Source: Eledone cirrhosa (Eukaryota). Taken from it: DNA of 64,000 nt. Below, one piece after another: positions 217 through 28,920 of the stretch (position 1 is its first letter; the number at the start of each line of letters is the position of its first letter). The stretch covers positions 219,170,001-219,234,000 of the forward strand of contig OZ024742.1 of the NCBI GenBank assembly GCA_964016885.1. Direction: 5' to 3'. The notes under the pieces are model-generated. The model worked only from the letters and a program-made list of their open reading frames with translations, was not told the DNA's origin and ran no database searches. Position numbers and translations under genes: made by a program.

Positions 217-6133
<5,917 letters not shown>

Positions 6134-6697: not shown

Positions 6698-6864
6698 TGT
6701 TTTCTTAATAATAAAACATGTGTAGGCTAGTCTGTGTTTGTCTGATGTGTGTGTATGTGTGTGTGTGTTGTTAAGGAGTTTGATTTAGAACTATGTAGCT
6801 CTATGTTCAATATCACTATGCCGATATTCAGAAAATATTTTTTCACTAAAACTTCAGATTGCCT

Positions 6865-9260
6865 ACAGTGATGACAAAAACCTTACAGTTAGCTGCCAAA
6901 ACCCCCTCCAAATGTTTTCAATGCCACAGGCTGGAAAAGGTAGTTAACCAACAGATCTTGGTATTTCAGAATTTTATTCTGTTCGGCTACGGAAGCTGTA
7001 GCTATCACCCTAACCGCAGTATCCAGGATCTTGGAAGAAGAAAATCAGTCACTAAATGTGACCTCGCAGATAAGACACCTGCCTCTTATAAAGAGGCGCA
7101 AGGTAAGACCGTCAGTCCTTTTCCCATCAATTCTGGACAACCCAGACAGTTCCAAAATTGAGGGAATGTTTGCCCGAGCCAAAGCTCTCTTGATGATGAA
7201 GTTTAGCTCAGTGTGACACATGAAGCGACTGAGATTCAGATGGCAAGATAGACTGTGAAGGCCTGTGGAGTCGAGGAGCCTACCACACCGATATTTCAGA
7301 CCTGTACAGACATCGGCTTCCACTCTGAGGGCAATGGAGACATGAAGATGGTCCAAGCTGAGTAGGCCACTGATGTTAGCCATGGGTAGGGCATCAACCC
7401 AATCACGAAAGTATTTGATGCTAGCAGATAATAAGCAGCACCCTGAGAACTGATCTGACTGTTCAAAGAGAGAGTCAAAGGTGGCTTTCAAATGTATGTT
7501 GTCCCAAACTCTCTGTCTCAAATTTTTCTGCCATCTTGTGAGGAACAGACAAACCCAACTCTCTCCATCATAGAAGAGCTTCATCCATCTCCCTGTTGGA
7601 ACTAGTCGATGTTGGAAAAAAGAAGGTGTTACCCACCAGGGTGGAGGAAAGGAAGCAAGGGAGAGAGAGGGACGAGCATTCACGTAGACCGAGGCCCCCA
7701 AATTGCTTGGGCAATGCAGCCTGACCACGAGACTCTGGAGAGAGTCTGACATTGATCAAGCACTCGGGTCTCTCGAAGATTAGGTTGTCAAAGCATTGGA
7801 GACATGACAAAAATCTGTGAGATGGCCTAACCCTGAGCATATATAGAAGCTTAGGAATGAATAGGTAATGAAAAAACCTTGATGGGGCTCGATTGCCTCA
7901 ATGTTCTTCAATAATTGCTCAAGGTTAACGATCTTAGATTGGAAAATTGATTTAAAAGCTCAGTCTGTAATTGGGGCTCCTAAGGAGCACCATGTTGACA
8001 GGGGGAGGGGCCACAATAGAAGGGAATGACTCTGCAAACAAGTCTATTGTCTGTTTATGTTGAGAAGCTGGGTGGTTAAGAATCCAGAGCTCACATTTGG
8101 AGCTATTGACCTGGAGACTCCGATGACCAAGCTCTTCAATCATTTTTTGCTATTTATAACCTATCTGGATGTCCCCACAAACAAGCATCAATATACCAAA
8201 CGTTTAAATCCAGCTCAACCTCCATCTTGGTGATGTCATCAATGCCCAGTGCAAACAGAGCGGGCCCAAGCGGGTCACCCTGTCGAACTCCTGAGTGAAC
8301 TGAGGACGGCATCACGGCCGATGGAATTGAAGACATATGAGGATGACTCTGGAGAACTTGGAGGGCAAGTTGGTAAAGGCTCTGGTAGCGTGGGCAGCAG
8401 CCTTACATCACAGCTTGGTACCCACCTCTAACTGGATAACGAAAAATTCCTCCGACAGTGAATCAGAGACCGATAGCAAACACAAAAAATCGACGAAGGG
8501 TACAACCAACCGCAATAGGGCGCAGTTCTCCATTGAATCCGAATAGTTTCGCACCGAAGAACAATGGACAGATATAGGGGAAAACATTCTCTGAAGGGGA
8601 CTGATTCTCAAACTGAGTCAGACTCTCCAAGAGCTTAAGTCCGGCATCACCAGCCAATAAGAAGATACCCTCCTTGAGGTACCAAGGTTGTAGACCGTCA
8701 ATCATAACCATCGGGGAAGGATGCAATCACCTTTCTGATGTTATCAGTAGTGTAGACGAGTCTTGAGTATTCTGGTGGTTTGAGCTGGAGTAGCTGGTCA
8801 TCCGGAGAGGCCGATGGGCACTTCTCTTTCAGCTGCTTATTAATGCCGATGCTCATGTGGTAGCTTTGGCGACACAGATGACATTTGATTGTCTTCAGGT
8901 ACCGACTTATGCGGGCACAGAGAGATAGCTACCGACGGTAGAAGGTCAACATTGGAATTTGAGCAAGGGAGTGGTAGGAGTGAACTAGCAATAAAGGCAT
9001 GGTAAACAGCATTATCTGTAACGGTGGGAGTCTAACGGAGGTTAGGCAATGCTGGGGGTGGGCTAGCTGTTATAGGAGTGGTGGGGTTGAGCAGGGTTAG
9101 TTCCATTCGAATGCAACGGTGGACAGAAGGGGTGATAGGAGACAAGTTAGCTTCTCTCGTGTGTGCCAAAGTTGGTGGAGAATGAGAGGTCGAAGGCCGA
9201 TCTGTTGTCACAAAGTCATTCAACCATGCAGGTCTCTGAGTCGCTCGACGCATGCCTCCA
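6865..9260 (-). mobile_element. Decayed CRE-like non-LTR retrotransposon (RT + CCHC + restriction-like endonuclease), copy 1
   Basis: Frameshifted pieces LRPIAVGCTLRR, SGVRQGDPLGPALFALGID, LDLNVWY.D, LPKQFGGLGL, YRCGRLLDSTGLHSLSC..HTELNFIIKRAL, GLSRIDGKRTDGLT (RPDG-type RLE). Confidence 0.8.
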
Positions 9261-10929
9261 CCAGCTAAAGTCGATTAAGTTTAAGTGATCGCAACTTTAT
9301 TTATCAGCAACAGCCAGTGATAATCCGGCCAGAACATCGGACAGCTAACGGGGCATGCGAAGACAGGTGGTTCGTGCGCGAGGTCGAAGTTAGGAGTAAG
9401 CGGATGAAAAGAGAAAAAGTGGAAAAGCGAAACGAGGAGGGAAACAAAGGAAATTAAAAGGGGGATCGAATTGTGTGTGTGTGTGTGTGTGGAGATGAGT
9501 GTGGCCTTGTGAAAAGCAGATAAATACAATGGAAAAAAAAAACCAATGAACATGTAAAGAGATAGGTAAAACATTAGGAGAAGCAAGGGAGCAGGGGGTT
9601 CATTTCCCTCCCCTAATTTTTGAAGAAAAGAGAGAGGACAAATGTGTTTGTGTATGTTTTCACAGAGGCGAATCAATTCAATAATTGTAAAGACAGTGCA
9701 AAAAAACAAAAAAGTGGTGATATTAAAACATTGAAGAGAGGAAGTTAAAACTGAAAAAATAATTTTGAGATGTACCAAATACGAGGTGAGGTCGTAGACA
9801 AAATTATGATAATACAGAATATATTTGGCAGGTCAAAAAACAAGAGAAGTTACTACGTTGATTTATCAATAATTATTTAATGCAAGGGAGATAACTGGAA
9901 TAAACGTAAGTTACACAAAACTTAAACACACATACACACACATATATATTCAAAAGTACTAAAGGAAAATCAATCTTTTTTCAATAAAAAATAGTTTTTA
10001 ATCGCTTACAAATGTTTCAGGCAAACTATAACATCGGTTCATTTAAATGCTGTATGAACGTTACTTGTTTTCGTTGTTGAAAAACTTAAAGCGAGTCTCA
10101 AATCACAATCTGCCCTCTTCAGAGTGACAACAAAATCTATTTCAATGATTAGTGACATAAACTACTTTTTCTCTTAAGCATTGGACATCTCAGAACATTT
10201 ATCATAATAGGACCCAACAGAAAATAAATTAGAAAAACATTTTTTCTGGGTTTTGTTGAATTTATGAATTGTCTTTCTTTATCGTTCAGTTACAGTATGT
10301 ATGAGTCGATGAAATAAAGTACTAGCAATGCACTGGCGTCGATTTAATAGACATTCCCCTTCCCCAAAAGTGTTGGCCTTTCAGTGAAGCGGAGAACAGG
10401 ACCTGCACATCAGGGGTAGATCGCTCTTTCTTACGTTTGTCATTTAATAAATAATTCAACAAATCAGTTTGTTCTTATTTTGCATATAGTTTAACTAAAG
10501 CTACAATACCATTAAAAGGACAAGATATGCATGGCTGTAACACAGGATTAAACAATAATTCTGCCATAAGATATATTCTGTTGTGGTTTAGCCCTGATCA
10601 GGCAGACCTTAAAATGTGGATCCTGCCAGAAGCAACCATCTCTAATCGATCTGGTTGGATCCCCAAGGGTGTACAGGAATGCATTATCTAATGAGTCTTC
10701 TTTTGTTTGGGTTTTTATTTTCTTTCAAGATGTGATTTATAAGAGATTTGGCTGTTATTTCTAACAGGTCAAGTTTTCACTTACATCATCAAATCTTGTA
10801 GTCTATTTCTTTAATAAGCACTGTCACACCACTGAAGACTTCGGTTTGGGATTCGCCAGTGCTTACTGGCAAGTAAACCAACTATTAAAATAAATATAGA
10901 AGTCTCTGAATATTTTAAGCACTTCAAGC

Positions 10930-11310
10930 ATAAGACTCTGCAAATCTAAAACTTGCTCTTGGGCAAGGTTCTCTTGCCAATACACTTCAGGTGGATCCAC
11001 TGAAGACAACTGTCACGGAGTACAGAATCCATGTTGTTCAAGTCACACAACTGCTGTGCTGACGATCTCAAGGCTCCCTCACATGTTCCAAAGCCTGCCA
11101 ACAATCTGGATCAAAATATCTGTAGATCTTCTGGATTGACACATTTTCATCCAGACATCCTGTTGGTATTGCAGAAGGATTTTGTTCCACAGTATCTTCA
11201 GAGAGAAGTTCCCCCCACATAGTATGAATGGCATCTTTATCAGTGACAAAGTAGCCAAGTATCTGTAGATCCCTGTTACTGGATGATTTCCTAATGAATG
11301 GAGTTGGCTT
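10930..11310 (-). pseudogene. Decayed C-terminal part of the MULE transposase ('LDENV' region + PHD finger) behind the 371-aa ORF, copy 1
   Basis: The +1 frame after the stop reads KPTPFIRKSSSNRDLQILGYFVTDKDAIHTMWGELLSEDTVEQNPSAIPTGCLDENVSIQKIYRYFDPDCWQALEHVREP*. Further on: SVL(R/C)DSCLQWIHLKCIGKRTLPKSKF*ICRVLC, a PHD-like Cys/His pattern with W changed to stop. Confidence 0.7.
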
Positions 11311-11311
11311 A

Positions 11312-12427
11312 TCAAGTATTGATTTTTTTCTTGGGAAGTTCTGTGACAGTACGATTTGACCCTTTGGGTTTACCCCTTTTCTTTGATTTTGGAGGCAAAG
11401 TGGTATTGTCCAAGATAAGATCAGCAGTTTCTAGAAATGCACATGGCTCTAGAGCTGTAGGTGATTCTGGTTCTTGTTTGATTGCAGATAGTTCTATATC
11501 AGTAGGAGTTTGCTGATCATTCTGTAAATCCGGCAAAACATCCTGTGTTGTGTACCCTGTCAAGTTAAGGTCATGGTAAATTGACATGTTAGTTGGTGGT
11601 GGATCCTGCACAAAAACTCCTATAATTTCTGCCTGTTTTCCTGCTTCCCATATCTTTCTTAACTTTTCTAACACACAAAGTCTTTCCTCATAGTGTTCGC
11701 CACACTCTGAAGCTAAGGAAGCCAGTTTCTGTCCAACTAGTAAAGCCCTCATGTATTTGTCATCTGCAGTCAGGTGACATCTAGGGGTGAGACTGACACT
11801 TGGCTGTTCAGAAATGCTGCCAGCTAGAGGCTTAAACATCTGGTGACCTGTCATGTAGTTCTGCATAGTCCAACTTTTAGCTTCTGTGGATGGTTTGGAC
11901 ATGGCAGTAGTGGCAATGTTGTGAATGTCCTTCATGAGCAGGGGTTTGCCTGTGGTCTCAGTGAGTTGTTGACAAACCATCTTCTTGTTGCTCGTAACCT
12001 TTAGCATTTCAGCTGCTCTGTCTTTGTCAGACTGGTCTAGGCGTCTTTGTGCTGGCAAGAGGTTGTACAGTGGCTCGGATACCTTATGGTTGTGATCACT
12101 AACGTACTTTGTGAGGACTAAGCTCTGTCCATCTTCACTGGATCTCAATTTCAGCTGGAATGGGCAGTTAACCTTGAATGTAGATTGGTTTGGTCGTTGG
12201 CCTTGGGATCTACTTATATATCTTCTGCCACCATGCACACAGGAGTACCACAGCTCATAGTACTTGATGTCAGGATTGAACTTGCGATTCGGCATTCTCT
12301 TCCGAGCTGCAGCAATTGTTCTACTGTCTCTTTTCCACAACTGCACGTAGTTGGTGGACTGGTAAATTTTCAGTATTTCTTCTAATTCAAAAAATGAACT
12401 GAAAGTATCTCCAACACCGAGTTCCAT
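11312..12427 (-). CDS. 371-aa MULE-transposase-derived protein (ZSWIM3 N-terminal/FAR1-like Zn DNA-binding domain, no catalytic core), paralog 1
   Basis: Intact single-exon ORF with a gccATGG Kozak context. Motifs: YSCVHGG..C(P)FQLKL..HNH Zn motif, QRRL, KDIHNI, KSWT..NY..HQMF, QKLASLASE..ERLCVLEKL..W, IKQEPESP, KKRGKPKG. Confidence 0.85.
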   Translation of the reverse strand: MELGVGDTFSSFFELEEILKIYQSTNYVQLWKRDSRTIAAARKRMPNRKFNPDIKYYELWYSCVHGGRRYISRSQGQRPNQSTFKVNCPFQLKLRSSEDGQSLVLTKYVSDHNHKVSEPLYNLLPAQRRLDQSDKDRAAEMLKVTSNKKMVCQQLTETTGKPLLMKDIHNIATTAMSKPSTEAKSWTMQNYMTGHQMFKPLAGSISEQPSVSLTPRCHLTADDKYMRALLVGQKLASLASECGEHYEERLCVLEKLRKIWEAGKQAEIIGVFVQDPPPTNMSIYHDLNLTGYTTQDVLPDLQNDQQTPTDIELSAIKQEPESPTALEPCAFLETADLILDNTTLPPKSKKRGKPKGSNRTVTELPKKKINT

Positions 12428-13073
12428 GGCTATACTGAATGGATGTTGTTACGGTTGAGAATTTTTATAATCGGAGATTTGGTTATTTCACCGGTAACTT
12501 AAGAATTTTAGCAGAAAATCAAATATTTACCTTATCCTTGTGTAATTAATACCTGTGATTAACTCTCCCGCCTAAAGACTGTAGTCACTCCTAGGGTTCT
12601 AAAACACTATATTTAGCGGTAAAATAAGCTTAAAAAGCATCTTTGTCTATTTTACCGGGTCGGGCTAGAGTTGCGGCCCTTTATGGTCTCTAGTAAAATA
12701 AGCTTAAAAAACATTTTTGTCTTTTTTTCCGCACCGGCTAAGTAGCCTATTCCTTAATTCCAAGCAAGTTTTTTTTACTATTTACAGATATCGGAAAAAT
12801 ATAAAATAAAATAAAAAAAATATCCGCTACACAATATTTTGCCGTTGGGACATCAATATTGAAAACACCGTTTTACCGTAAACGAAAATGTTTTTCTTTT
12901 TAGTAATATTTACTATGATTCAATCTTGCGACATTTGAAACTTATATTTATCCCTATATGATATATATTTATTGTTATTATTTTTAGTATGTATTTATAT
13001 ATATTTATTACCATTATATCTCTTGTTTGTAAATACAACATACACATTACGATTATTCCAGTTTGCGATAGCT
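12428..13073. promoter_or_regulatory. Candidate bidirectional promoter between the MULE-derived gene and the USP39 fragment, copy 1
   Basis: Divergent ATGs at 12427(-) and 13074(+); two ~56-bp direct repeats (12618-12674, 12692-12746); possible 5' UTR intron 12435-12530(-). Confidence 0.55.
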
Positions 13074-14129
13074 ATGGCTGATCAAGTCAACGGTAAACAT
13101 CTTCTTGAGAAAACTTCTACTGCAAATGGTATAGTATAGTTAAGTAACTCCTGAGGGAGACGTAGGGGCACGATATTGACATAGCGTTTCTTAGACATTT
13201 TAAAAACCTGTGGCGCTCTTCCCTCGCCAGGTCTGAACACAGCTTATTTCTTCCAGAGAAGGATAGAGTAAGAGAGGGGAAATGAGAATGAGATACAGGG
13301 GAAAAAAATCGAACCTAGTACTGGACAGGTACTTTTTTTTTTATCGACCTCGACAGAAGAAAAGGCAAAGTTGACCTCCGTGGTATTTGAACTCAGAGAG
13401 CAGAGAGCCGGAACAAATACGGCAAAGCATTCTATCCGACATTCTAACAATCCTGCCAATTCATTGCCTTCTATGTATGATAACCAACATTTAACTAAAA
13501 GAAATTAAGTTAATGAAGGAACCTCTACATGGTTGCTCAACCTACTTAATAAAGCAAGTTAATCCCCTTCAAATCCCACCCAATTCTCTTTAAAAAGAAA
13601 GCAAAGTAATTTGATATTTTAAATACATTAAATCTGAAAAATAAGATGGTGTGGTCATGGTTGGAATATCTTTTGATAATAAGACTTCTTGTAACTTGAT
13701 CCTAAACAGCTTATTTAGAATTTTTAAAAACTCAACCTTTTTGTCCCACGAAGGAGTCTTTTCTTACCAGTCAAGGTGAACTTGGAAATGTGAACTTAGA
13801 AAATACAATTTTATAGTGCTACAGCATCCTGTTACATCTATTTAGTTGTTGAGCATAAACTGTCTAGGTTCATATTAGACATCATAATGCTGGTGTTAAA
13901 ATATAGACTGCCACCTTCACTGCTATTTAAACCATATCAATTTCCATTATCTCTTTATATTATATTTAAAAAAATCAATAGTATTGCTATTTAAGTTAGG
14001 AAAAAATAATATACTTTTTACTCTTTCATTTCCTTGTAGATCTGTGCTGGACTTTGATTTTGAAAAGCTATGCTCTGTTTCATTATCACATATCAATGTT
14101 TATGCCTGTTTGTGGTAAATACTTCCAAG
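13074..14129 (+). pseudogene. USP39: Truncated USP39 duplicate (exon 1 stub + exon 3)
   Basis: 13074-13128 matches the first 55 nt of USP39 exon 1. A ~4.5-kb deletion then removes the rest of exon 1 and all of exon 2. Exon 3 (14040-14129) has a 5-bp deletion giving TGT TTG TGG TAA in the native frame. No later exons are present. Confidence 0.9.
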
Positions 14130-14214
14130 GTAGGTATTTTTGAAAAGATAGAATTAATTGCTTATTTTCTTACATTTCCTTTTAATTAAAGATAATTAAG
14201 GAGTGATTTTTTAC

Positions 14215-15916
14215 TGGAAAAAGGCTCACAAAAAATTTGTTTCTCACGAAAAGTCAAACACTCATAAACTTGCGACATCTAACATCCTTTTCAAAAAGAA
14301 ACAAGAAAGTACATGGTCAAACTGCAAACAAGCCCACCATGATAATCAAAATAAAGCAAGGCATACTTTGCTTAAGGTAATATCTTCTTTGAAGTATTTA
14401 GCCAAGCAAGGGTTGGCAATTCAAGGAAAGCATAGTGACAAGGGAGCTGTTAAATTTTCGATGTGAAGATGTACATGAGCTAAGAGTTTGGTGGAACAGA
14501 AATCACAGCTACACCAGTGCTGAAATCCAAAATGATATTTTAAAAACAATGAGCCATATGGTTTTGAAAGGCATAATAAAGAAACTTAACAAAGATAGTC
14601 AGGATAAGGAACAGCAGGTCATTTGTGTTCATGTAAATGATTATTTTGAAATTAAAGAGGTTTTTGGAATCTACAATATAGATAGTACAACTGGTAAATC
14701 TCTTTATCAAATGATTCTTGATGTACTTCTATGCCTTCAATTACCAATTCAAACTCTTCGATGTCAGACATGATAGTGCAGCCATATGGCAGGTAAACAT
14801 CTTGGTTGTCGAGCAGAAATAAAGAAGCATCAGCCTCTGGCCCATTACGTGCACTGCGGCATTCATATTTCTCAACTTATAGCTGAGTCCGTTCAACAAG
14901 CTTCATTTATCAAAAATGCTCTCAATTACATGAATGAATTGGGGAAACTATATAGTACATCATAGAAATTTAAGCACGTATATTTATCACAACATTATGA
15001 AGAAAATGAAGTATTGTCACTACGCTCCTTAAAACCTGTGTGCCCTACTCGATGGCTAACATGACTTTCTGCAGTCAAAGCCCTTCTTGAAAATTATTCA
15101 GATGTCCTCATTTCTTTACAAGAGGCAACAAATGAGTTTGGCACCAACATTGCATCCAGAGCTAATGGTATTCTTACGTGTCATTCTTCGGGCCAATGTG
15201 TTCTTGGATTGCATGTTAACTCTTTGAAGGATTGAACAAATCTTTTCAAAGTACCACCTTCAATCTAGGTAGCATGTTGCATAGTGTCAGACTGGTGCAG
15301 GAGGAGCTAAAAATTCTACGCAGTGAAGAAAAATTTCAGGAGCTATTCAATACAGCAGAAAAAATGATTCATCAATTCAATATTTCTCCTTTGGAGCTAC
15401 CCAAGCAACAAAAAGTTCCTAAAAGATACCAGAAAGGAAATGAGTTAAAATATCAACACTGCACTGTTTTGGATCATTACAGCAAATTTGAAAGATTATT
15501 TTTTTTCACAGGATTTAGCAAATTATGAAAAACTGAGCAATGGAAATGTTTGTGCTGAAGTGATGATGCAGTATCCAGAGCTTGATGAATTTTCTTTAAG
15601 GAACGAAATACTTTTTTATAGAAATCATCATTGTGGATCATCTCTCGAGGATCATCATAAAATATTCAGTGAAATGCAACCAGAAGTCTGGCTGCTTTTA
15701 GTGTTTCTAACCAGTTCTTGTGAAGCTGAAAGATCTTTTAACGCTCTGAGGAGACTCAACATTTGCCTGCGATCAACCGTAACTCAGCAAAGGTTGAATT
15801 ATATTCTAATATGCCATGTTTATAGAGTTGTTTTGAAAAAGATTAGTTGTGAAGAAGTTGCTAAATTATTTATTGACAGCAATGATGCGAGATATAATAC
15901 ATTTGAAAAGTTCTAA
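14215..15916 (+). mobile_element. Decayed hAT transposase (ZMYM/ZNF862-like, TTF-type finger)
   Basis: WKKAHKKFVSHEKSNTH, SSLKYLAKQGLAIQG, YTSAEIQNDIL, LRCQT*D, YVHCG.H, CPTRWL, SCEAERSFNALRRL..LRSTVTQQRLN (hAT dimerisation domain); multiple frameshifts and stops. Confidence 0.85.
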
Positions 15917-15992
15917 AAGACAAATTTACTTTATATTTTTTTTATTCAAACGTCTATGTTTTATTTTTTGTTTATTTGATATATCTATCTAT

Positions 15993-16170
15993 CTAAGGCG
16001 GGTAAAATTCCCGAGATCCATGGACGAGTTCTCTCCAGCGGTCTCTGTCCCTCATTATCGCTGCCATATCCTGCATCTCCAACAGACCAGTGTCTGTCCT
16101 TAGGGCATCAACATATGTTAACCTTGGTCTTCCTCTTCTAGTGTGTCCATGTAGGGGCTCCCAAAGCTTA
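15993..16170 (-). mobile_element. RTE-like LINE 3' fragment
   Basis: LWEPLHGHTRRGRPRLTYVDALRTDTG..MRDRDRWR followed by a (taga)n tail. Confidence 0.6.
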
Positions 16171-16319
16171 TTTTTTTTATATCTGAACTTCATTTGAATA
16201 TATAAAATTTAATTAGCATAAAATGTTGTTTATGTGATAGAGTCCGGGAAAAGCACCATCAGCAATACTAACATGCTCCTTTAAGAATCAACAAATGTTG
16301 GTTTGCCCCTCTCACATTT

Positions 16320-17000
16320 TTAAGGCAAACGAGGCCCCTGCAAACAATAGAAAGTTAGTTAAAGGAAAACGATCTCCACATAAACCAAAAAAGAGGTATA
16401 AGGATTTGTTGAAAGCCTCCTTGAAAGATGCTAACATCTCTGCTGATACATGGGAAAGCGTAACTGCTGATCGTAATAAATGGTGAAAGACTACATGAGG
16501 GGAAAGTTGCTTTTGAAGCATCTCAAATCGCATACAAGAAAGTAAAAAGGGACGTCAGGAAAAGCATTCCTGTTACATTTCCAGACAGCAAAGGTCCTCC
16601 TATGGCGCTGACATGCAGCGTCTGTGCAAGACTCTGCCCCAGCAAAGCTGGACTCAAAAGTTGTCTTCGCAGTCATAAAGTGAGACTAGTAGTTGACTAT
16701 CAGGCTGCTGTCAGAGATGCTACTCATCATACCTGTCAAGCATGCGGAAAAGAGTGTAGATCAGCAGGAGGGCTCAAACAGCGTGCAAAAGTACATGAGG
16801 TCCAACCACAGCCGACTATTGCCAGTGAATGTTTTCATCATGGATGCCAACTCTGTGCAAGACATTTTAGATCATTGGCTGGGCTAAAAAGCCACATTCG
16901 ATCACAGCACCGCTAATTATTAATATATGTGTGTCTATTTGTTTTGTTTTTTTATCGTGCAATGGCCATACTCAATTACAAGGGGGCAGCCATCATATCT
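16320..17000 (+). mobile_element. LINE (RTE-like) 3' end with three C2H2-type zinc fingers
   Basis: GKRSPHKPKKRYKDLLKASLK..TWESVTADRNKW, then CSVC..GLKSCLRSH, CQAC..GLKQRAKVH, CQLC..GLKSHIRSQH*, followed by a microsatellite tail. Confidence 0.65.
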
Positions 17001-17304
17001 ATATATATATGTGTGTGTGTGTATGTATATATATTTGTGTATATATGTGTGTATATATATATATATCATCATCACCGTTTTACGTCCATTCTTCCATGTT
17101 AGCATGGGTTAGACGGGTTGTCCTGTTGTGGGCAGTGCCCAGTCAGCCGACTTTGTCTTGCTCATACAAGAACTGATTTTGGCTCGATTTCTACAGCTGG
17201 ATGCCCTTCCTAACACCAACCTCATTTACTAGATGCTTTTTTGCTGTGACATCTCCACGACCACTTTGCAGTGGGAGGGCGTGGGGGTATATTGTCTATA
17301 TGCT

Positions 17305-17820
17305 TCAGCTACGGCTTGTACCCGTGGGAAGTTGGGTCTTCTGTATTACTGCATGATGCCAGAAGTCACGTTCCTGTGACATCACCTTTGAGAGGTGCAA
17401 TTGGGTAAGGTCGGCTTTTATCACTTCATCCCAGGTCTTCTTGGGTCTCCCCACTCCACGGCTTCCATAAACTTCCAGTGCTCTGCACCTTTTTATGCAG
17501 CTGTCATCTTTCATACGCATCACATGTCCATACCAACACAACCTTCTCTCCTGCACACAGCTTTTGGTTCCTTTTATGCTCAGTCTCTCTCTCAATTCAT
17601 TTATATATATATATATCGTTGGGGGAGTAGACAGCTATGTTTACTTAGGAAGATGGTGACAAAGGACGGCGACCTTCTCCCGGAGATCAAAAGAATTACG
17701 CTTGGATAGGCGGCCTTTGGAAAGGTATGTAACATCATGAAGAATCCCAAGGCCACCATGCGAATAAAGCGGAAAATCTTCAACGAGCACATCTTGCCAG
17801 TGAAACCTGGGCAATGAATA
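17305..17820. mobile_element. Two RTE-like LINE fragments in opposite orientation
   Basis: (-) VQERRLCWYGHVMRM..GRPKKTWDEVIKADL; (+) YVYL..KDGDLLPEIKRITLG..AFGK. Confidence 0.6.
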
Positions 17821-18639
17821 ATAGATATATATATATAGAGAAAGAAGGTAAAGACCCAACCGCAAAGCAAAGTGGTTTTGGCTTGTATTCAGTCTGGTTT
17901 TTACCTTCCTCTATACCCACTATGCTTCTTCTCATGCATTGAGTACTCTCTTGATTTATAAAAATAAAAGAAAGGGAACACAAACATTGAAATTAAAAAT
18001 CAATATTGTAGGGTTTGCTCCTTACAATATCTGGTCAATAGTTACAAAGACAATGTCTTTTTAAATAAAAAAGGGAAAAGAACGCTCCAAAATAATGATT
18101 TTGAATACATGGGTAAAAGCATGTATTTAACTATTTTAACATAAATATTTTCATAAACAGTATTTTTTCAATGCTTGGCTTCAAGTTGAAAATGTGTTAT
18201 TATTTAGAGTTTTACAACTAAATAAATAATAAAGTTTTTAAAACATTTTTATTGTTTTGTGGATCTTTTTTTTTTAATGTCAAAAAAATTGTGTAGCCTT
18301 GTCTGTCTGTGTGTTGTTAAGGAGTTTGATTTAGAACCATGTAGCTCTATATTATCACAATGCTGTATATTCAGAAAAATATTTTTTTCACTGAAATTTC
18401 AGGTTGACGAATACTGTGTGAGAGTTATTTGGATGACAGAAACTGCAGGAGTCTATCACACAAACATACAGACACACATACATATACATAGACACAAGAC
18501 ATACACATACTCACATACATGTCCAACCATTGGTAGCATGAAATAACATGAAAAATTATCAAGATGATTATGATGATGATGAAGATGGTGTGTGTGCATG
18601 TTTGTTAAGAGAAGTCTAAAAAGGCCTATCTAATATATA

Positions 18640-18815
18640 ATTGTTTCTACTTTTGGCATAAGGCCAGCAATTATCCCAGTGTATTTATTTTATCGACCCT
18701 GTAAGGATGAAAGGCAAAGTTAACCTCGGCGGGATTTGAACTCAGATCATAAAGGGAGGTAACTCTATGCTTCAAAGCAGCGTCCGACCCTCTACCGATA
18801 CTGCCAATCCACCGT
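18640..18815 (-). mobile_element. Full-length tRNA-derived SINE (family A)
   Basis: The reverse complement begins ggtggattggcagtatcggtagagggtcggac (A box) .. gagttcaaatcccgccgagg (B box). Confidence 0.85.
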
Positions 18816-19239
18816 CTGGAGAACTGTGAGACTGTGTCAGAGTTATTTTTCTGAAAACGTTATTAAAATGAGTTGGATTACTTTGATTAAATCATGAATG
18901 AATATTATGTAATTTATCTACTAAATTTCGTAGCTCTTGATTAAACATAAATATTCTTATATAAAATGTATTGCTTATTTCAAGATTCACTTCTTTTAAA
19001 GTTTTCAAATATCAACACTTCTGTTAGCATTCGTTATATCATTTTCATAACATTTCACCGTAATCCCATTTAAATATGTCATCTTTTTAAAATATATCAC
19101 GGATTACTTTACTGATTGCAAAAGAAACTGTAACACAGTCTTCATTCAAGTTCTGTGCATATTGTCAATTACGATTTTATTTACAGTTGTGTAAATACCG
19201 TTACAAATGTAGTTTTGTTTTATTGTTTCACTAACATAA

Positions 19240-19510
19240 GAAAAATAAGAAAAGAGAAAGGAAAAAAATAAAACACACAAGCAGGTAATTCACACATCTA
19301 GGACCACATACAACAAAGGCCAGGCGAATGGGGTGGACAAACGAACCACTGCCAAAGCAAAAGATAACAATATTGTGAGGAACACTGGGAAACCTCTTTA
19401 ATAGTTTTTGAGGCAAGCCAGCATTACCTTGGATCATGGCGAGGCTGATGCACTGGAACAGCCAAGCATCACCATCACCAGTTACCTCTGGCGAGCCATC
19501 AGGGAAGACA
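19240..19510 (-). mobile_element. Short 5'-truncated 3' end of the same CRE-like family
   Basis: Similar to 20610-20870 (3' ORF end and 3' UTR: catctaggacca..aaccactgcca..cactgggaaacctct). Confidence 0.65.
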
Positions 19511-20619
19511 ATTTACTTTTCAATTTACATATATCTATATGCATATATTGTGTATATATCAATATGCACACTAAATATGCTAGCAGAAAACTGCCCGCAG
19601 GGTTGTTTTTCTGCTCGTATTGTATAATTTAAGAGTAGTCTAAAAATCCAATGAGTTATTGTTGTGTTCCTTCATGTCCTGTAACATAGTAGTACAACAG
19701 AGATTGATAATTACCAGACTGAAAACAAACAGTAGTAGTAGTAGTAACATCAGCATCGCCACTACTACCACCCCAATCACTACCAACATCACCACCACTA
19801 CCACCATCAGCATTATCTCACCACCACTACCAACATCATCATCCTTATCATTACCATCACCACCGCTACTGTCACCATCATCGTTGACATCAACATTGTT
19901 GTATGTCCACTTTCTATGCTGACATTGGTCAGACAGGTCTTTACAGTTTGAGTCAGTTCTTAATTGGAGTTACTGCACTTCTAAATGGATTGGAGAATCA
20001 CATTTCACTGTTATATTCCTATTTTGGTGGAATTTGTATGGTTGGATGCCCTAATACCAACCAATTTACAGAGTGTACAGGGTGTATTTTACTGGAGCAT
20101 TAGTACTAAAGATGTCATATTTTTAATAAGACTAAGGAATCCTATCTACACATTCTCATCAATAACTTTATAGTGTAAATGAATGTTCAAACCTTACTAC
20201 TGTTACTGAGTTGTGCACTTGGGCCTTTAACTCTTGATATAATCGTGGTGGACGCCTCTTGATACACGTGTCTAGGGCATTCTTTTAAACCTGGCAGAGT
20301 CCATTCATCTCTGGGTCAGAACACAGCCTATATCTTACAGAGAAATTATTAACATTTGAAACAAAATTATAAAGATCTATAAATTTATTCCTCAAAATAA
20401 ATGTGAAGTTTCCACGAATTCCACTAGTTATGTATTAATTTCTGTATTTTGATACGTAGGGAAAAACAGACTTTGTTAAAGAAATGTCTTCAGATTGTAG
20501 ACTTGAAATTCACCATCAACCAATTAGTAAATAAACTTTTTTTTTTCTCTATTGAAAAATATAACTATATTGACAGTAGTTTTATTCACAATTGTATAAA
20601 TAATATTACAAATAAAAAA

Positions 20620-23300
20620 AGAGAAAGCACACACAAGTAGGTAATATACACATCTAGGACCAGATACATCAAAAGGCAAGCGAAAGGAGTGGATAAACAA
20701 ACCACTGCCAGAACAAAAGATAATATTGCGAAGAGCACTGGGAAACCTCTCTATTAATTTTTTAGGCAAGTCAGCATGCTCGCAGTGTAACCTTGGGTGA
20801 TGGTGAGGCTGATGTGCCGGAACAGCCAAGTGCCTTCACCAGTTACCTCAGTTAGGCGAGCTGCCAGTGATGACAAGAACCTCGCAGTTAGCGGCCCAAT
20901 TCTCCCAAATGTCTCAAATGTCACAGGCTGGAAAAGGGAGTTAACCAACAGATCTTGGTATTTCAGGATTTTATTCCATTCGGCTACTGAATCTGTAACT
21001 CTTGCTCTGACCACAACATCAAGGATGAGAGACAAAAATGTGTCACTAAATGTGACCTCCAAGATAAGACACTTGCCTTTTATCCAGGGGCACAGGGTAA
21101 GACCGTTAATCCTTTTTCCATCAATTCTGGACAACCCAGACAGTTCCGAAAGGGAAGAGATGTTTGCCCGGGCCAAAGCTCCCTTGATGATGAAGTTTAG
21201 CTCAGTGTGACGCATGAAGCGACTGGCATTCAGATGACAAGATAGACCGTGGAGTCGAGGAGCCTACCACACCGATATTTCAGACCCGTACAGACATCGG
21301 CTTCCACTCCGAGGGCAATGGAGACATGAAGATCGTCCAAGCTGAGTAGGCCACTGATGTTAGCCATGGGTAGGGCATCAACCCAATCACGAGAGTATTT
21401 GATGCTAGCAGACAGTAAGCAGCACCCTGAGAACTGATCTGACTGGTCAAAGAGAGAGTCAAAGGTGGCTTTCAAATGTATGTTGTCCCAAACTCTTTGT
21501 CTCAAATTTGTCTACCATCTTGTGAGGGACAAACCCAACTCTCTCCATCATAGAAGAGCTTCATCCATCTCCCTGTTCGAATTGGTACATGTTGGAAAGA
21601 AGAGGGTGGAGGAAAGCAAGCAATGGAGAGAGAGTCTGACAATGATCACGCACTCAGGTCTCTCGAAGATTAGGTTGTCAAAGTGTTGGAGACATGACAA
21701 AAATCTGTATGAAGGGCTAACCCTGCGCATATATAGTAACTTCGGAATCGATAAGTAATTCCTGAGTATAAAAAAAACCTTGATGGGGCTCGATTGCCTC
21801 AATGTTCTTCAATAATTGCTCAAGGTTAGCCATCTTGGATTGGAAAATTGACTTAAAAGCTAGGTCTGTAATTGGGGCTCCTAAGGAGCGTCATGCTGAC
21901 AGGGGAGGGACTGCAATAGAAGGGAATGACTCTGCAAACAGGTCTATTGTCTGTTGATGTTGAGAAGGTGGGTGGCTAAGAATCCAGAGCTCACATTTGG
22001 AGCTATTGACCTGGAAACACTGACGACCAAGCTCTTCAATCATTTTATTTGCTGTTATAAAAACCTTATCCGGATGTCCCTCAAACAAGCATCATTAAGA
22101 TACCAAACATTTAAATCCAGCTCAATCCCCAGCTTGGTTATGTCATCAATGCTCAGTGCAAACAGAGCGGGCCCAAGTGGGACACCCCGTTGAACTCCTG
22201 AGGCAGAAATGATGATTTGGTCACCAAAAGAGAGGTAGAAGGGGCTCCAATAATCCTGCCAAGCAAAGTGGTAGAGTTGTGGAACCCTCTCTCTTACTGA
22301 GCTGAAGACGACATCACGGCTGACGGAATTGAAGGCATTCTTGAGGTCAAGTTTGAGGATGACTCAGGGGACTTGGAGGGCAAGTTGGTAAAAGCTCTGG
22401 TAGTGTGAGCAGCAGCCTCACATCCCAGCTGGATGACAGAAAATTCCTCCGACAGTGAATCAGAGACTAATAGCAAACACACCTTTGCAGTAAGATGACG
22501 AAGGGTGCAACCAACCGCAATAGGGCGCAGGCCTTCATTGGGCTTTGTGAGTCCAATTAGTTTCACACCAAAGACAACCGATTCTCAAACTGAGTCAGAT
22601 TCTCCAGGAGCTTGAGTCCAGCATCACCAGCCAATAAGGAGATACCATCTTTGAGGTACTGAGGTCGTAGACCATCAATCCCCACACCAGAACCAGCGGG
22701 GAAGGATGCAATCGCCTTTCTGGTGTTATCAGTAGTGTAGATGAGTCTTGAGTATTCTTGTGGTTCAGGCTAGTGTAACTGGTCATCCAGAGGGGCCGTT
22801 GAGTGCTACTCTTTCAGTCACTTGCAAGAGAAGAAAGAGTAGAGAGGAGACGGACAGCCCCTTTAATGTCAAATTCACTGAGCTTAGCATTAACAGCATG
22901 TTTTAGGTTTATCAGTTGCCTGTTGATAGACACCGAGCTTGATTCCAATCTGAGGTGAGAAGTTTTTTCGGTGAACTCAAACAGCTGGAACTGTTACCTG
23001 AGAGACGTGAGGGAGCCAGATTTCATATTGTGCACATGGAGAGAGATGAGAGGGAACAAAAAGGTACCGACTTATGCAGGCACAGAGAGACCAATTAGGT
23101 GGTGAGCTTATAGCTACCGACAGGAGAGGGTCAACATTGGAATTTGGGCGAGGGAGCGGTGGGAGTGAAGTAACAATAAAGGCATGGTAAACAGTATTGT
23201 CTCTAACGGTGGGAGTCTAACGGAGGTTTGGCAATGCTGGGTGTGGGCTAGCTGTTATAGGAGTGGTGAGCTGAGCAAGGTTAATTCCATTTGAATCCAA
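20620..23300 (-). mobile_element. Decayed CRE-like non-LTR retrotransposon, copy 2
   Basis: KPNEGLRPIAVGCTLR, GCEAAAH, RHTELNFIIKGAL, GLSRIDGKRINGLTLCPW..EVTFSDT, KILKYQ..FQPVTFETFGRIGP. Colinear with 6865-9260, with reciprocal deletions. Confidence 0.8.
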
Positions 23301-25506
23301 CGCTGGAGAGGAGAGGTTAAAACATTGAAGAGAGGGAGCTAGAATTAAAGAAAGAATTTTGAAATGTACCAAAAAAACAATGGAAAAATTTGGGTTTTTT
23401 TTAAACAAAAACGATGGGAAAACAAAAGGTGTTAATTAATTGACCGTGTAGTTAATAGGTCATTCAATACCTTAAAGACAGTGCAAAAGTAGAGTGGTGA
23501 TATTAAAACAGTGAAGAGAGGAAGTTAAAACTGAAAAAAGAATTTTGAGATGTACCAAATATGAGGTGAAGTCGTAGACAAAATTATGTTCGTTTTCTTC
23601 TAGTATGTTTTCTTTTTTTCTTTGTTACCATGCTGTTTGGAAGTTACTGTATTTATTGCGTTGCCTGGTCACCAGTAGCAAAACCAGAGAAGGTTGCATT
23701 CAGAAATATTGTGTGCTCGATAGTGACATGAATAGTATCTAAAATTGGAATAAATAATTGGAAATGTATAGTTTTGTGGATGTCCAGTTTGGGAACACGA
23801 CACTAATTGATTCAAAATAATACAGAATATATTTGTCTGGTAAAAAAACAAGAATAGTTATTACGTTGATTTATCAATAATTATTTAATGCAAGGGAGAT
23901 AACTGGAATAAACGTAAGTTACACAAACCTTATAGTACGTACTGCGTGAATACGAGAAAAATGATTTTCAGCCGTGACGTTTTTGACAGCGTACACACAC
24001 ATACATACAAACAATGAGTTATTTGGTTTGTTGGTTATTCAACAAAGTTAATTTTACAACAGTTTAGAAGCACTCAACAAGAGTTGAGTATCAATAGTAT
24101 TAATAAATGGAAAATATCTTTATAAAACTATATTTTATTATACGTATTTCAAGGGAACTAATATATATATAAGTACTAAAGGAAAATCAATCTTCTTTTA
24201 TTAAAAAATAGTTTTTTATCGCTTACAAATGTTTCAGGCAAACTATGACATCGGCTCATTTAAATGCTGTATGAACGTTACTTGTTTTCGTTGTTGTAAA
24301 ACTTAAAGCGAGTCCCAAATCACAATCTGCCCTCTTCAGAGTGACAAAAAAATCTATTTCAATGATTAGTCACATAAACCACTTTTTCACTTAAGCATTT
24401 ATCATAATAGGAACCAACAGAAAATAAGTTGAAAGAAAATTTTTTTTCTGGGTTTTGTTGAATTTATGAATTGTCTTTCTTTATCGTTCGGTTACAGTAT
24501 GTATGAGTCGATGAAATAAAGTACTAGCAATGCACTGGGGTCGATTTAATAGACTTTCCCCTTCCCCAAAAGTGTTGGCCTTTCAGTGAAGCGGAGAACA
24601 GGACCTGCACTTCAGGGGTAGATCGCTCTTTCTTACGTTTGTCATTTAATAAATAATTCAACAAATCAGTTTGTTCTTATTTTGCATATAGTTTAACTAA
24701 AGCTACAATACCATTAAAAGGACAAGATATGCATGGCTGTAACACAGGATTAAACAATAATTCTGCCATAAGATATATTCTGTTGTGGTTTAGCCCTGAT
24801 CAGGCAGACCTTAAAATGTGGATCCTGCCAGAAGCAACCATCTCTAATCGATCTGGTTGGATCCCCAAGGGTGTACAGGAATGCATTATCTAATGAGTCT
24901 TCTTTTGTTTGGGTTTTTATTTTCTTTCAAGATGTGATTTATAAGAGATTTGGCTGTTATTTCTAACAGGTCAAGTTTTCACTTACATCATCAAATCTTG
25001 TAGTCTATTTCTTTAATAAGCACTGTCACACCACTGAAGACTTCGGTTTGGGATTCGCCAGTGCTTACTGGCAAGTAAACCAACTATTAAAATAAATATA
25101 GAAGTTTCTGAATATTTTAAGCACTTCAAGCATAAGACTCTGCAAATCTAAAACTTGCCCTTGGGCAAGGTTCTCTTGCCAATACACTTCAGGTGGATCC
25201 ACTGAAGACAACTGTCACAGAGTACAGAATCCATGTTGTTCAAGTCACACAACTGCTGTGCTGACGATCTCAAGGCTCCTTACACATGTTCCACAGCCTG
25301 CCAACAATCTGGATCAAAATATCTGCAGATCTTCTGGATTGACACATTTTCATCTAGACATCCTGTTGGTATTGCAGACGGATTTTACAGTATCTTCAGA
25401 GAGTTCTCCCCACATAGCATGAAAGGCATCTTTATCAGTGACAAAGTAGCTAAGTATCTGTAGATCCCTGTTACTGGATGATTTCTTAATGAATGGAGTT
25501 GGCTTA

Positions 25507-26622
25507 TCAAGTATTGATATTATTCTTGGGAAGTTCTGTGACAGTACTATTTGACCCTTTGGGTTTACCCCTTTTCTTTGACTTTGGAGGCAAAGTGGTA
25601 TTGTCCAAGATAGGATCAGCAGTTTCTAGAAATGCACATGGCTCTAGAGCTGTGGGTGATTCTGGTTCTTGTTTGATTGCAGATAGTTCTATATCAGTAG
25701 GAGTTTGCTGATCATTCTGCAAGTCCGGCAAAATATCCTGTGTTGTGTGTCCAGTCATGTTAAGGTCATGGTAAATTGACATGTTAGTTGGTGGTGGATC
25801 CTGCACAAAAACTCCTATAATTTCTGCCTGTTTTCCTGCTTCCCATATCTTTGTTAATTTTTCTAACACACAAAGTCTTTCCTCATAGTGTTCGTCACAC
25901 TCTGAAGCTAAGGAAGCCAGTTTCTGCCCAACTAGTAAAGCCCTCATGTATTTGTCGTCTGCAGTCAGGTGACATCTAGGGGTGAGACTGACACTTGGCT
26001 GTTCAGAAATGCTGCCAGCTAGAGGCTTAAACATCTGGTGACCTGTTATGTAGTTCTGCGTAGTCCAACTTTTAGCTTCTGTGGATGGTTTGGACATGGC
26101 AGTAGTGGCAATGTTGTGAATATCCTTCATGAGCAGGGGCTTGCCTGTGGTCTCAGTGAGTTGTTGACAAACCATCTTCCTGTTGCCCGTAACCTTTAGC
26201 ATTTCAGCTGCTCTGTCTTTGTCAGACTGGTCTAGACGTCTTTGTGCTGGCAAGAGGTTGTACAGTGGCTCGGATACCTTATGGTTGTGATCACTAACGT
26301 ACTTTGTGAGGACTAAGCTCTGTCCATCTTCACTGGATCTCAATTTCAGCTGGAATGGGCAGTTAACCTTGAATGTAGATTGTTTTGGTCGTTGGCCTTG
26401 GGATCTACTTATATATCTTCTGCCACCATGCACACAGGAGTACCACAGCTCATAGTACTTGATGTCAGGATTGAACTTGCGATTCGGCATTCTCTTCTGA
26501 GCTGCAGCAATTGTTCTACTGTCTCTTTTCCACAACTGCACGTAGTTGGTGGACTGGTAAATTTTCAGTATTTCTTCTAATTCAAAAAATGAACTGAAAA
26601 TATCTCCAACACCGAGTTCCAT
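25507..26622 (-). CDS. 371-aa MULE-transposase-derived protein, paralog 2
   Basis: Intact ORF of identical length to paralog 1; 16 aa differences by manual count; all Zn ligands and the IKQEPESP motif are conserved. Confidence 0.85.
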   Translation of the reverse strand: MELGVGDIFSSFFELEEILKIYQSTNYVQLWKRDSRTIAAAQKRMPNRKFNPDIKYYELWYSCVHGGRRYISRSQGQRPKQSTFKVNCPFQLKLRSSEDGQSLVLTKYVSDHNHKVSEPLYNLLPAQRRLDQSDKDRAAEMLKVTGNRKMVCQQLTETTGKPLLMKDIHNIATTAMSKPSTEAKSWTTQNYITGHQMFKPLAGSISEQPSVSLTPRCHLTADDKYMRALLVGQKLASLASECDEHYEERLCVLEKLTKIWEAGKQAEIIGVFVQDPPPTNMSIYHDLNMTGHTTQDILPDLQNDQQTPTDIELSAIKQEPESPTALEPCAFLETADPILDNTTLPPKSKKRGKPKGSNSTVTELPKNNINT

Positions 26623-27272
26623 GGCTATACTGAATGGATGTTGTTACGGTTGAGAATTTTTATAATCGGAGATTTGGTTATTTCACCAGTTACTTAAGAA
26701 CTTTAGCAGAAAGTAAAATATTTACCTTATACTTGTGTAATTAATACTTGTGATTAACTCTCACGTCTAAAGACTGTAGTCACTCCTAGGGTTCTAAAAC
26801 ACTATATTTAGCGGTAAAATAAGCTTATAATGCGCCTTTGTCTATTTTACCGGGACAGGCTAGAGTTGCGACCCTTTATGGTCTCTGGTAAAATAAGCTT
26901 AAAAAGCATTTTTCTCTTTTTTCCGGGATCGGATAAGTAGCCTATTCCTTAATTCTACTCCAGGCAAGTATTTTTGACGATATACAAATATCGAAAAAAA
27001 TATAAAATATAATTTAAAAAATCAGTTACACAATATTTTGCCGTCGGGACATCAATATTGAAAACACCGTTTTACCGTAAACGAAAATGTTTTTCTTTTC
27101 AGTGATATTTACTATGATTCAATCTTGCGACATTTGAAACTTATATTTATCCTTATATGATATATATTTATTGTTATTATTTTTAGTATGTATTTATATA
27201 TATTTATTACCATTATATCTCTGGTTTGTAAATACAACATAGACATTACGATTATTCCAGTTTGTGATAGCT
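26623..27272. promoter_or_regulatory. Candidate bidirectional promoter shared by the MULE-derived gene and USP39
   Basis: Only 650 bp between the divergent start codons; direct repeats at 26813-26869 and 26887-26941; possible 5' UTR intron 26630-26725(-). Confidence 0.6.
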
Positions 27273-28841
27273 ATGGCTGATCAAGTCAACGGTAAACATC
27301 TTCATAAGAAAACTTCTACTGAAAATGTCCCAGTTAAAAAACTTAAAAAGGACAATAGATCTGGAGAAGGTAAATGGTTGTTTATTATTATGAGGTTAAT
27401 ATTTATATATTTTAAATTTACTTTTTCTAGAACACTCTAGACTTAATCTACCGCTCGCTTTATTACAACCAACTGGCTCTTGTGTCCCTTTATCGGTGTC
27501 CACTCTGTTGCAAATCTTCAGGTCGAACTTCCAGTTTAAAGACACCTTCTGTCATCCCTCCCATCTGTCTTGGAAACCCTGGAAAAGATCATGAACACCT
27601 AACTCCCCTTCCCGGCCTAAAAGTATATTTAAAAAAATAATTTCCCCTCTAGCCAGTTAAACTCTTCTCTGTTTTCAACTCAACCACAAAAATAGAGTTT
27701 ATTAACCCACTAAGCTGAGGGTTGATGTCAAAGGCCCAAACTGGGGATAGCGTGTCAAAGACCTATTGTGGTTCTTATAGCTGAAACAACAACGGCATAA
27801 TAATAATAATGGTTTTCGGAGGAGCATGACGATTAAATTAACACCAGTGCGTTACTGGTACTCTATTTTATCGACTCCGTAAGGACGAAAGGCAAAGCAA
27901 ACACCAGCGTGATTTGAACTCTAAACAGAAAGAACCACAAATACCGCAGCGGGTAAATTTACAGGAAAACACCCCTCAGACGTTTGGATTTTGAGATTGA
28001 TTTATTGAAAACAACCGAAAGAAAAAAAAATTCATATCAAATAAACCTCTGAGGGTACCCCACCACTCGCCCTCAGTTTTTTAGGGGAGAAAATGGGTCG
28101 TTTCCGACTGATGTGGAGCTCATATTCGTTGAAAATTCCCCACTGAACTGAGGGGTGTTTTTTTCTATAAATTTACTCTACAAGGCATCTTGTCTTACGT
28201 TTTACCGATATTTCCATAATACTAATAATGGATATCCTCACCTTCAGATGAAAATATCGTAAAATTCCTTGGAGTCCCAGTGCCCCTACACACTATCATC
28301 ATCGTTTTTACGTCCGTTTTGCCACTCTTGCATGGGTTGGAAAGGTCTTTCTCAGCACCGCATCTCTCCACTCATCGCATTTCTTCATCATCTCCTCTAC
28401 CAGTCTTAGTGATTTGAGGTCTGCTCTCGCAACCGCTGCCCAGGTCTTTCTTGGTCTTCCTCTACTGCAGCTTCCTTCACCCAGTGGTCATTATCTATGC
28501 GCATCATCTAAGTTCAAATCCCGCCGAGGTTGACTTTGCCTTTCATCCTTACGGGGTCGATAAAATAAAGTACCAGTAATGCACTGGGTAATTGCTGGCC
28601 TTGTGCCTAAAGTAGAGACAATTATCTATGCGCATCACATGTCCATAACAACGCAGTCTTCTCTCCTCCACACCACCTCGGATTCCTCTTAAACCCAGCT
28701 TCTCCCTCAGCTCGTTCAAGCTCTACCTTTCTCTCACACTTAAATTGTACATCTAACGAAGAATGGTTGCTTCATATGTCCTGCAGTCACAGCCCATGTT
28801 TCACTACCATGCAGCTTCGCGCACAGGCATTATACAACCGT

Positions 28842-28920
<79 letters not shown>

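Follow-up and report, generated by a model that had tools for sequence, protein, structure and literature searches.

The window analyzed here, a 64,000-nucleotide stretch of the Eledone cirrhosa genome (contig OZ024742.1 of assembly GCA_964016885.1, positions 219,170,001 to 219,234,000), contains two open reading frames (ORFs) of 371 amino acids derived from an animal Mutator-like element (MULE) transposase of the ZSWIM3-like type. Both lie on the minus strand, copy 1 (P0001) at 11312..12427 and copy 2 (P0002) at 25507..26622, the latter adjoining a complete USP39 gene, and they encode an internally deleted, C-terminally truncated transposase. As reported in an earlier note on this stretch, neither ORF contains a stop codon or an insertion or deletion (indel), and a codon comparison of the copies reproduced its count of differences, namely, 28 base differences falling in 16 replacement and 12 silent codons, with no gaps. 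With confidence close to but short of even, we propose that weak purifying selection maintains this frame as a young host gene whose predicted product binds DNA as a dimer and does not cut it.

The parentage of the ORFs is clear. A search of longer proteins recovered the full-length relatives P0008 (886 amino acids), P0009, and P0010 from Littorina. P0008 has Pfam matches to ZSWIM3_N, RNaseH-like, MULE, and, weakly, PHD domains, and a SWIM motif is visible in the alignment. The window ORF corresponds to P0008 residues 5 to 185 (79 to 80% identity) fused to residues 555 to 748 (64 to 65%); the ~370 codons between them (P0008 residues ~186 to 554), encoding the DDE core and SWIM, were deleted in frame, as the earlier note had surmised. 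The junction lies between STE and AKSW at 11880..11881 (minus strand) in copy 1 and at the same point, 26075/26076, in copy 2. Splicing is less likely as its source, as the residues of the relatives, judged at the protein level, allow no AG acceptor in phase. The in-frame junction is no evidence by itself, because a dead sister derivative in the same genome, L003, has one too.

Measured against the parent, the description of the ORFs as intact does not hold. The parental frame runs ~135 residues further, to a PHD finger, and this tail is broken in both copies. Both exit the parental frame within an A-run at ~11323-11329 (copy 1 coordinates), just ahead of the stop codon. Beyond it, the C-terminal domain and PHD finger persist out of frame on the minus strand at 10936..11311 in copy 1, with one frameshift, and at 25138..25506 in copy 2, with a frameshift and a stop of its own. 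A 15-base loss and a late stop are common to both tails, and the late stop predates this insertion because it is also found at L003. The AT-hook-like motif of the earlier note is present only in degraded form: the basic motif at 11360..11383 (minus strand) reads KKRGKPKG, with the core RGKP where all three full-length relatives have RGRP. The kept parts align to a protein with MULE and RNaseH-like domains, and in a quick tree the two window copies are nested with P0008 and P0003 (SH-aLRT support, 98). The window ORF thus derives from a MULE transposase that lost its DDE core, its SWIM, and, by frameshift, its PHD finger. Two 100-amino-acid Logan proteins (P0167 and P0178) are 59% identical to residues 272 to 371 and share the frameshift-derived end, so that the new C-terminus is present in another organism. 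They are known from this stretch of protein alone and their AT-hook is further decayed, so we keep them as a lead rather than as proof that the new C-terminus is conserved.

No terminal inverted repeats (TIRs) had been visible to the earlier note, but a 5' TIR starts at 12753 in copy 1 and at 26948 in copy 2, and the TIR and subterminal repeats (12498..12753 and 26693..26948, both on the minus strand) are shared with a dispersed family of miniature inverted-repeat transposable elements (MITEs). The 708 bases upstream of the ORF match at least 41 other places (40 of 240 candidates were scored); these are MITEs of 440 to 890 bases with a TIR of ~40 bases beginning GGAA. Both TIR arms were seen in 10 of the 13 MITE loci examined. 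The start-codon motif of the transposase is kept in all eight MITEs measured for it, and a 9-base target site duplication, likewise measured in eight, is perfect in two, matches at 7/9 positions in three (AT-rich), and matches at 4 to 6 of 9 in three. The MITEs differ from each other by 8 to 12% and from the window ends by 14 to 15%. The family (L020 to L032) is spread across many contigs of the 3.0-Gb assembly (G000), with L026 and L027 forming a duplicated pair 12 kb apart. The MITE sequences gave no match downstream of either ORF, and a 3' TIR was thus not found. Two other candidates for element ends were set aside: a 17-nucleotide inverted pair at 9893/13047 lies outside the element, with one arm just ahead of the USP39 start, and repeats at 10384-10506 and 10616-10671 belong to other dispersed families with no link to the MITEs.

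The coding part of the element is rare. A DNA search of G000 yielded three matches from three candidates, namely, both window copies and a 147-base piece at 85%, and a protein search agreed. In contrast to the many near-identical, TIR-flanked copies that the earlier note had considered, there are only two coding copies, which share a host flank, indicating a low-copy, immobile element insofar as such searches score only the best candidates. The pair lacks the two ends and the many dispersed copies with flanks of their own that mark a mobile nonautonomous element, as well as the DDE core, SWIM, and paired TIRs of an autonomous MULE. Elsewhere in the genome the family survives as relics. L003 (G000:C3:152623626-152624226) is an independent deletion derivative, in which residues 3 to 52 are fused in frame to residue 730 onward; it has lost its start codon and retains a 5' TIR remnant and an open run of 154 codons. 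L011 (C2:93.07 Mb) is a DDE piece with two stops. No intact transposase of the family was found in G000 with P0008, P0022, and P0023 as queries, a count that is a floor given that the P0008 search was stricter at first look, and 11 pattern matches to DNA of full-length relatives in metagenome contigs yielded none that was confirmed. Two more distant ZSWIM3_N domains, L050 and L051 (G000:C4:298.04 Mb and 338.88 Mb), have open frames of 185 and 225 codons and are possible older host genes of this type.

The two copies were made by a tandem segmental duplication (6238..34026), in which ~6238-14212 matches 17954-34026 apart from later insertions, and they share host DNA outside the TIR. The duplication lies between USP39 and the end, near 6100, of a cGMP-dependent protein kinase gene whose 3' exons occupy 707-6130 on the plus strand. 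Beyond copy 2, the likely exon 1 of USP39 (27273..27369, plus strand), placed there by sequence and phase, has its ATG 324 bases past the TIR end and a phase-1 donor that fits the exon at 31277-31334; element and gene thus stand head-to-head on opposite strands, ~320 bp from TIR end to start codon. The USP39 copy duplicated beside copy 1 is broken, as the earlier note had it: exon 1 starts at 13074 and is cut off at 13128 (13074..13128, plus strand), and a later exon (14041..14130, plus strand) is 5 bases shorter than its intact counterpart at 33850-33944, a frameshift that leads to a stop. An exact 106-base direct repeat (37522-37627 and 38173-38278) lies in the USP39 intron region.

This arrangement could in principle be an error of assembly, with copy 2 a second haplotype placed in tandem and the comparison of paralogues really one of alleles. 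The copy-specific letters in sequencing runs X1 and X3 do stand at about half the local depth, and a second species, organism B (described below), has one contig over the ORF. Against this, copy-specific and flank contigs have a depth of ~6 to 10, with about double (15 to 17) for the near-identical stretch, while one unit has the cut exon 1 and the frameshifted USP39 exon and the units differ by kilobases of insertions. We regard such an error as highly improbable.

Between the TIR and USP39, the observed/expected ratio of CpG is 1.6 to 1.9, versus 0.37 for the window. In octopus, gene bodies are methylated and many promoters and transposons are spared (PMC9476566), so that, if the host is similar, the high ratio fits an open promoter. 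Mutator elements are described as preferring insertion sites upstream of genes (PMC6719617). Transcription of the ORF may start in its TIR or be driven divergently by the USP39 promoter. Depletion of CpG within the ORF was rejected as a sign of transcription, as the dead L011 is equally depleted (0.14).

The N-terminal part of the predicted protein matches Pfam ZSWIM3_N at residues 5 to 114 (E = 5.5e-19), in agreement with the WRKY/GCM1-type zinc domain that the earlier note had recognized. This predicted DNA-binding domain (12041..12421, minus strand; residues 3 to 129) keeps C63, C88, H112, and H114 and has the four-stranded fold and invariant C-C-HxH ligands of the WRKY-GCM1 class. It is followed by a three-helix, helix-turn-helix (HTH)-like subdomain (11888..12046, minus strand; residues ~128 to 180, helices in the structure model) and by a two-helix hairpin (11612..11767, minus strand; residues 221 to 272, or 221 to 270 in the model) that precedes a disordered tail. 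The model has a mean pLDDT of 71 and a pTM of 0.50, with pLDDT of about 95 in the folded N-terminal parts and mostly >90 in the zinc domain. The best Foldseek match is yeast AFT2 on DNA (4lmg; E = 3.9e-4), followed by WRKY domains, and VIA likewise returned AFT2 (Z = 7.4; root mean square deviation, 2.7; 88 aligned). The VIA matches of the three-helix unit to HTH, Myb, and transposase DNA-binding domains are middling (Z = 4.5 to 7.4), and the arrangement is a common one; residues 185 to 285 gave only matches under 0.9 in the ESM Atlas. Two copies of the hairpin (residues 208 to 280) were predicted to pair, with a score of 0.54 versus 0.02 for the best of three controls, agreement of the runs in at least 89% of contacts, and a pLDDT of at least 67. 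In calibration, 21 of 30 microbial pairs and 17 of 29 eukaryotic pairs (7 of 16 for animals) attained the mark used, compared with none of 23 and 30 single chains, respectively. The hairpin is therefore predicted to form a homodimer.

Several comparisons bear on whether the frame is under selection. The history of the two copies includes four independent frame breaks, every one of them within the final 130 of 501 codons (P = 0.0045). Under neutrality, the frame would survive 28 differences with a probability of 0.012 at 0.15 indels per substitution (the rate seen beside the ORF), 0.096 at 0.05 (a third of that rate), and 0.29 at 0. The ratio of replacement to silent rates (dN/dS) between the copies is 0.36 by Nei-Gojobori counts (Fisher P = 0.009), so that a ratio below 1, as first estimated by eye, is borne out in value but loses significance once transitions are allowed for (P = 0.065 in a transition-weighted neutral simulation and 0.10 in a binomial test). 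Outside codons 1 to 114, 12 of 25 changed codons are silent (P = 0.044). Among family-invariant residues, with invariance defined on three sequences only, 0 of 53 in the zinc domain are changed in copy 1 and 1 of 53 in copy 2; over residues 5 to 184, 3 of 70 are changed versus 16 of 93 in the dead L011 (P = 0.013).

A second species offers the only selection test free of the bias that comes from having picked the locus for its open frame. We compared four of seven listed sequencing runs with the window; X1, X3, and X4 behave as DNA, and X4 represents organism B. A 2,930-base X4 contig matches 11301-12760, running uninterrupted over the deletion junction, and further matches the tail and the host flank at 12827-13128. 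As organism B shares the junction and the host flank, insertion and deletion predate the species split, and a syntenic copy of the kind sought by the earlier note is thereby in hand. Over the ORF plus 5' end, organism B differs from the window at 127 of 1,450 bases (8.8%), compared with 185 of 1,606 (11.5%) for three noncoding pieces (P = 0.012); a fourth piece, the promoter/exon-1 flank (15/301, 5%), was excluded as probably constrained, and its inclusion would weaken the contrast. Gap letters number 20 of 1,460 and 64 of 1,622, respectively, and the alignment ends 11 bases past the stop codon. The implied between-species dN/dS is 0.16 to 0.57, depending on the rate assumed for change in the 5' end. 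Position 353 is arginine in organism B, which places the AT-hook change in the recent history of the window lineage. Runs X1 and X3 further show, over 11148-11879, an extra ~88% copy, at a depth like that of a single-copy sequence, that ceases to match at the deletion junction; it was not found in G000 by DNA or protein searches and is possibly an undeleted relative.

Other observations weigh against selection. No close annotated orthologue was found in protein database searches. The nonsignificant dN/dS aside, the ORF has diverged between the copies as much as the 3' flank (2.5% versus 2.3 to 2.5%), codons 1 to 114 show three replacement changes and no silent ones, and the divergence is patchy (0 to 22 differences in each 200 bases), a pattern suggestive of gene conversion that blurs the dN/dS. 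With P0008 as the reference for polarization, 4 of 47 positions in residues 5 to 51 have changed in the window lineage, compared with 5 in the dead L003; since the window's own dead tail has changed at ~6.5 of 112 positions (L003, 18), there is no slow-down in this segment. Invariant residues have changed in the folded parts at 7 of 91 positions versus 7 of 63 in the dead tail (P = 0.57), and the stretch matching P0008 residues 555 to 746 has lost 15 of 65, with decay of the AT-hook included. The choice of the locus for its open frame inflates the frame-survival and within-genome tests. Between species, the contrast with the tail piece alone yields P = 0.07, and the ORF piece of organism B has 20 gap letters (net, −10), which may or may not disturb its frame.

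These observations suit a neutral relic, that is, an ordinary deletion derivative of a dead Mutator family whose 371 codons have escaped interruption by chance, aided by slow local change and by gene conversion between the tandem copies. The family has left other deletion derivatives, L003 with its in-frame junction and 154 open codons and the DDE fragment L011; the post-SWIM basic residues have decayed along with the AT-hook; and the tail of the window lineage has changed so little since the split from L003 that few breaks may be expected. Such chance survival fits less well with the confinement of all four breaks to the tail, with neutral survival of 0.012 to 0.096 when indels are allowed, with the kept zinc-domain invariants, and, between species, with the lower divergence, the fewer gaps, and the break-off of the alignment at the stop codon. 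We consider a relic of this kind quite possible, although below even probability. On balance, the sequence comparisons, mostly concordant but contradicted by one test, point weakly to purifying selection on the ORF. Of the catalytically dead, transposon-derived factor described in the earlier note, the MULE origin, the loss of the catalytic core, the low copy number, and the synteny have stood, and the selection tests are mixed.

We return to the young host gene as our preferred reading and outline a history for it that is mostly shown. A MULE inserted head-to-head at the USP39 promoter and lost the DDE core and SWIM, the reading frame of its tail, and its 3' end; the element, by then immobilized, was later duplicated in tandem together with host DNA. 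The frame, transcribed from the TIR or divergently from the USP39 promoter, would yield a dimeric, non-cutting protein. This protein may bind the TIR motif both at scattered MITE ends and next to USP39, at the 5' end of its own element, and may there repress nearby transcription by competition or modulate it. An effect on nearby transcription rather than on transposition is suggested because no intact transposase was found in G000; for the same reason, the earlier proposal of a transposon repressor is weakened as a present-day role.

The ORF might alternatively have been selected, like the KP repressor of Drosophila, only while the parental transposase was active, its dimeric stump blocking the TIRs, with selection lapsing after the death of the family. 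It has both properties described for P-element repressors (PMC12393704), the predicted dimer would suit this role, the MITE burst is old (8 to 12% pairwise), and the family has no intact transposase among those found in G000. The signals of constraint, though, are late ones, seen between recent copies and between species rather than early, and the extra ~88% copy in X1 and X3, whose match stops at the junction, may mean that an undeleted relative still exists. We judge this lapsed function unlikely.

Domestication of transposases is well known, but few young cases still let one read the dead tail, the TIR and its MITE family, the parent, and a sister species together. Should both selection and expression be borne out, the young host gene proposed here would allow a direct test of whether a new factor inherits the dispersed ends of its transposon as targets; if it is a relic, the locus is an ordinary deletion derivative.

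The rest of the window contains remains of other elements. Broken pieces of a hAT/ZMYM-like transposase (14402-15916, plus strand) give weak matches to DUF4371 and the hAT dimerization domain; read depth over them is a few hundred-fold in organism A but low in organism B. A 150-codon frame with C2H2-like fingers (16464-16916, plus strand) lies in a very high-copy repeat and is probably the end of a long interspersed nuclear element. Fragments of non-long-terminal-repeat retroelements occur at 6866-8832, 20865-22817, 32501-32974, 51180-51998, and 56353-57645, with RVT_1 matches at 22058-22363 and 51180-51998; the pair at 6866 and 20865 is 73 to 87% alike and thus more diverged than the MULE block. 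A 70-residue frame at 20428-20637 (plus strand) scores 27.4 bits for Pox_F15 (cut-off, 25.7), likely an artifact of composition.

Of 184 proteins sorted by the modules they carry, 15 further clusters combine the DNA-binding domain with the hairpin and have neither DDE nor SWIM. The 12 named ones are from Oscarella (two, transcriptome ORFs), Nematostella, Macrosteles, Maniola, Ceutorhynchus, Sitophilus, Uloborus, Meganyctiphanes, Palaemon, Anneissia, and Gymnothorax. The suggestion of a cephalopod-specific gene therefore fits this insertion only, as the architecture recurs across animal phyla. A quick tree was built from 17 DDE-less proteins and 34 transposases (51 rows), omitting nearly identical members of a cluster and proteins that belong to neither class. 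On this tree the DDE-less label needs 12 changes, compared with a mean of 14.5 after shuffling, and the starred branches force at least three; the nesting of the window pair with P0008 and P0003 at 98 marks the window form as an independent and recent origin. P0086, P0087, and P0070, which lack the DDE and come from a crinoid, a shrimp, and an eel, form one clade (SH-aLRT, 99) that could represent either a gene family of greater age or a DDE-less element that is mobile, and some of the other DDE-less proteins may be spliced isoforms or gene-model errors. The recurrence of this architecture in unnamed animal genes suggests a minimal useful piece of a MULE transposase. A broader generalization, in which animal Mutator transposases would repeatedly yield dimeric WRKY/GCM1-HTH-hairpin transcription factors, with at least several independent origins from sponges to fish and with the present locus a young case that captured a housekeeping promoter and has its own MITEs as binding sites, is more speculative, and we consider it rather unlikely.

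Among known systems, the nearest to the window ORF are animal MULE/ZSWIM3-like transposases (Pfam ZSWIM3_N, ZSWIM1-3_RNaseH-like, MULE, SWIM, and PHD), especially P0008, Palaemon P0003, and Littorina KAK7114682.1. It resembles them in sequence (79 to 80% over residues 5 to 184 and ~65% over residues 555 to 748 of P0008), in its ~40-bp GGAA TIR, and in having related MITEs, some of them with a 9-bp target site duplication, and it departs from them in having neither DDE core nor SWIM, a PHD tail out of frame, a degraded AT-hook, and no 3' TIR among the sequences searched. Metazoan "FHY3" candidates were the subject of a study by Mukherjee and Moroz (2023). That work already published MULE-derived candidate transcription factors in animals, one of them for Octopus (PMC10027918). 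The Aplysia and Amphimedon rows it presents carry the DDE region, unlike the window ORF, and two peptide motifs of the window protein were absent from the five supplementary files searched (PMC10027918). A literature search, with most subscription papers outside its scope, returned no paper that treats this locus or the pairing of a DNA-binding domain with the hairpin.

The plant FRS-related factors FRF1 to FRF4 are MULE derived, keep a FAR1-type DNA-binding region without MULE and SWIM, and have been proposed as competitive or dominant-negative modulators (PMC13306707). The window ORF is alike in its MULE origin, its kept DNA-binding region, and its loss of MULE and SWIM, but it is of independent, animal ZSWIM3-like origin and keeps the HTH unit and hairpin, and no full-length host paralogue was found. 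Its FAR1 score of 23.6 bits is below the Pfam cut-off of 28.1, and its nearest relatives are animal transposases rather than members of the plant FAR1/FRS/FRF clade, so the protein could at most work like an FRF, by analogy and outside that family; the likeness to the KP repressor and to solo WRKY-GCM1 factors is likewise one of proposed action and not of membership.

The Drosophila KP protein dimerizes, and stationary P neogenes exist. Both KP and the window ORF are internally deleted with a kept DNA-binding domain, in keeping with a repressor logic in which an interrupted transposase retains that domain (PMC12393704); they differ in that KP belongs to the THAP superfamily rather than WRKY/GCM1 and is mobile, multicopy, and coexistent with active elements. 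Finally, stand-alone, insert-type WRKY-GCM1 factors are considered to be transposase fragments probably recruited as transcription factors (PMC1702500). Like yeast Aft2/Rcs1 and the solo Caenorhabditis WRKY-GCM1 factors, the window protein is predicted to have this fold, as its match to AFT2 indicates; unlike theirs, its locus is far younger, with the TIR, the dead tail, and the MITE relatives still there.

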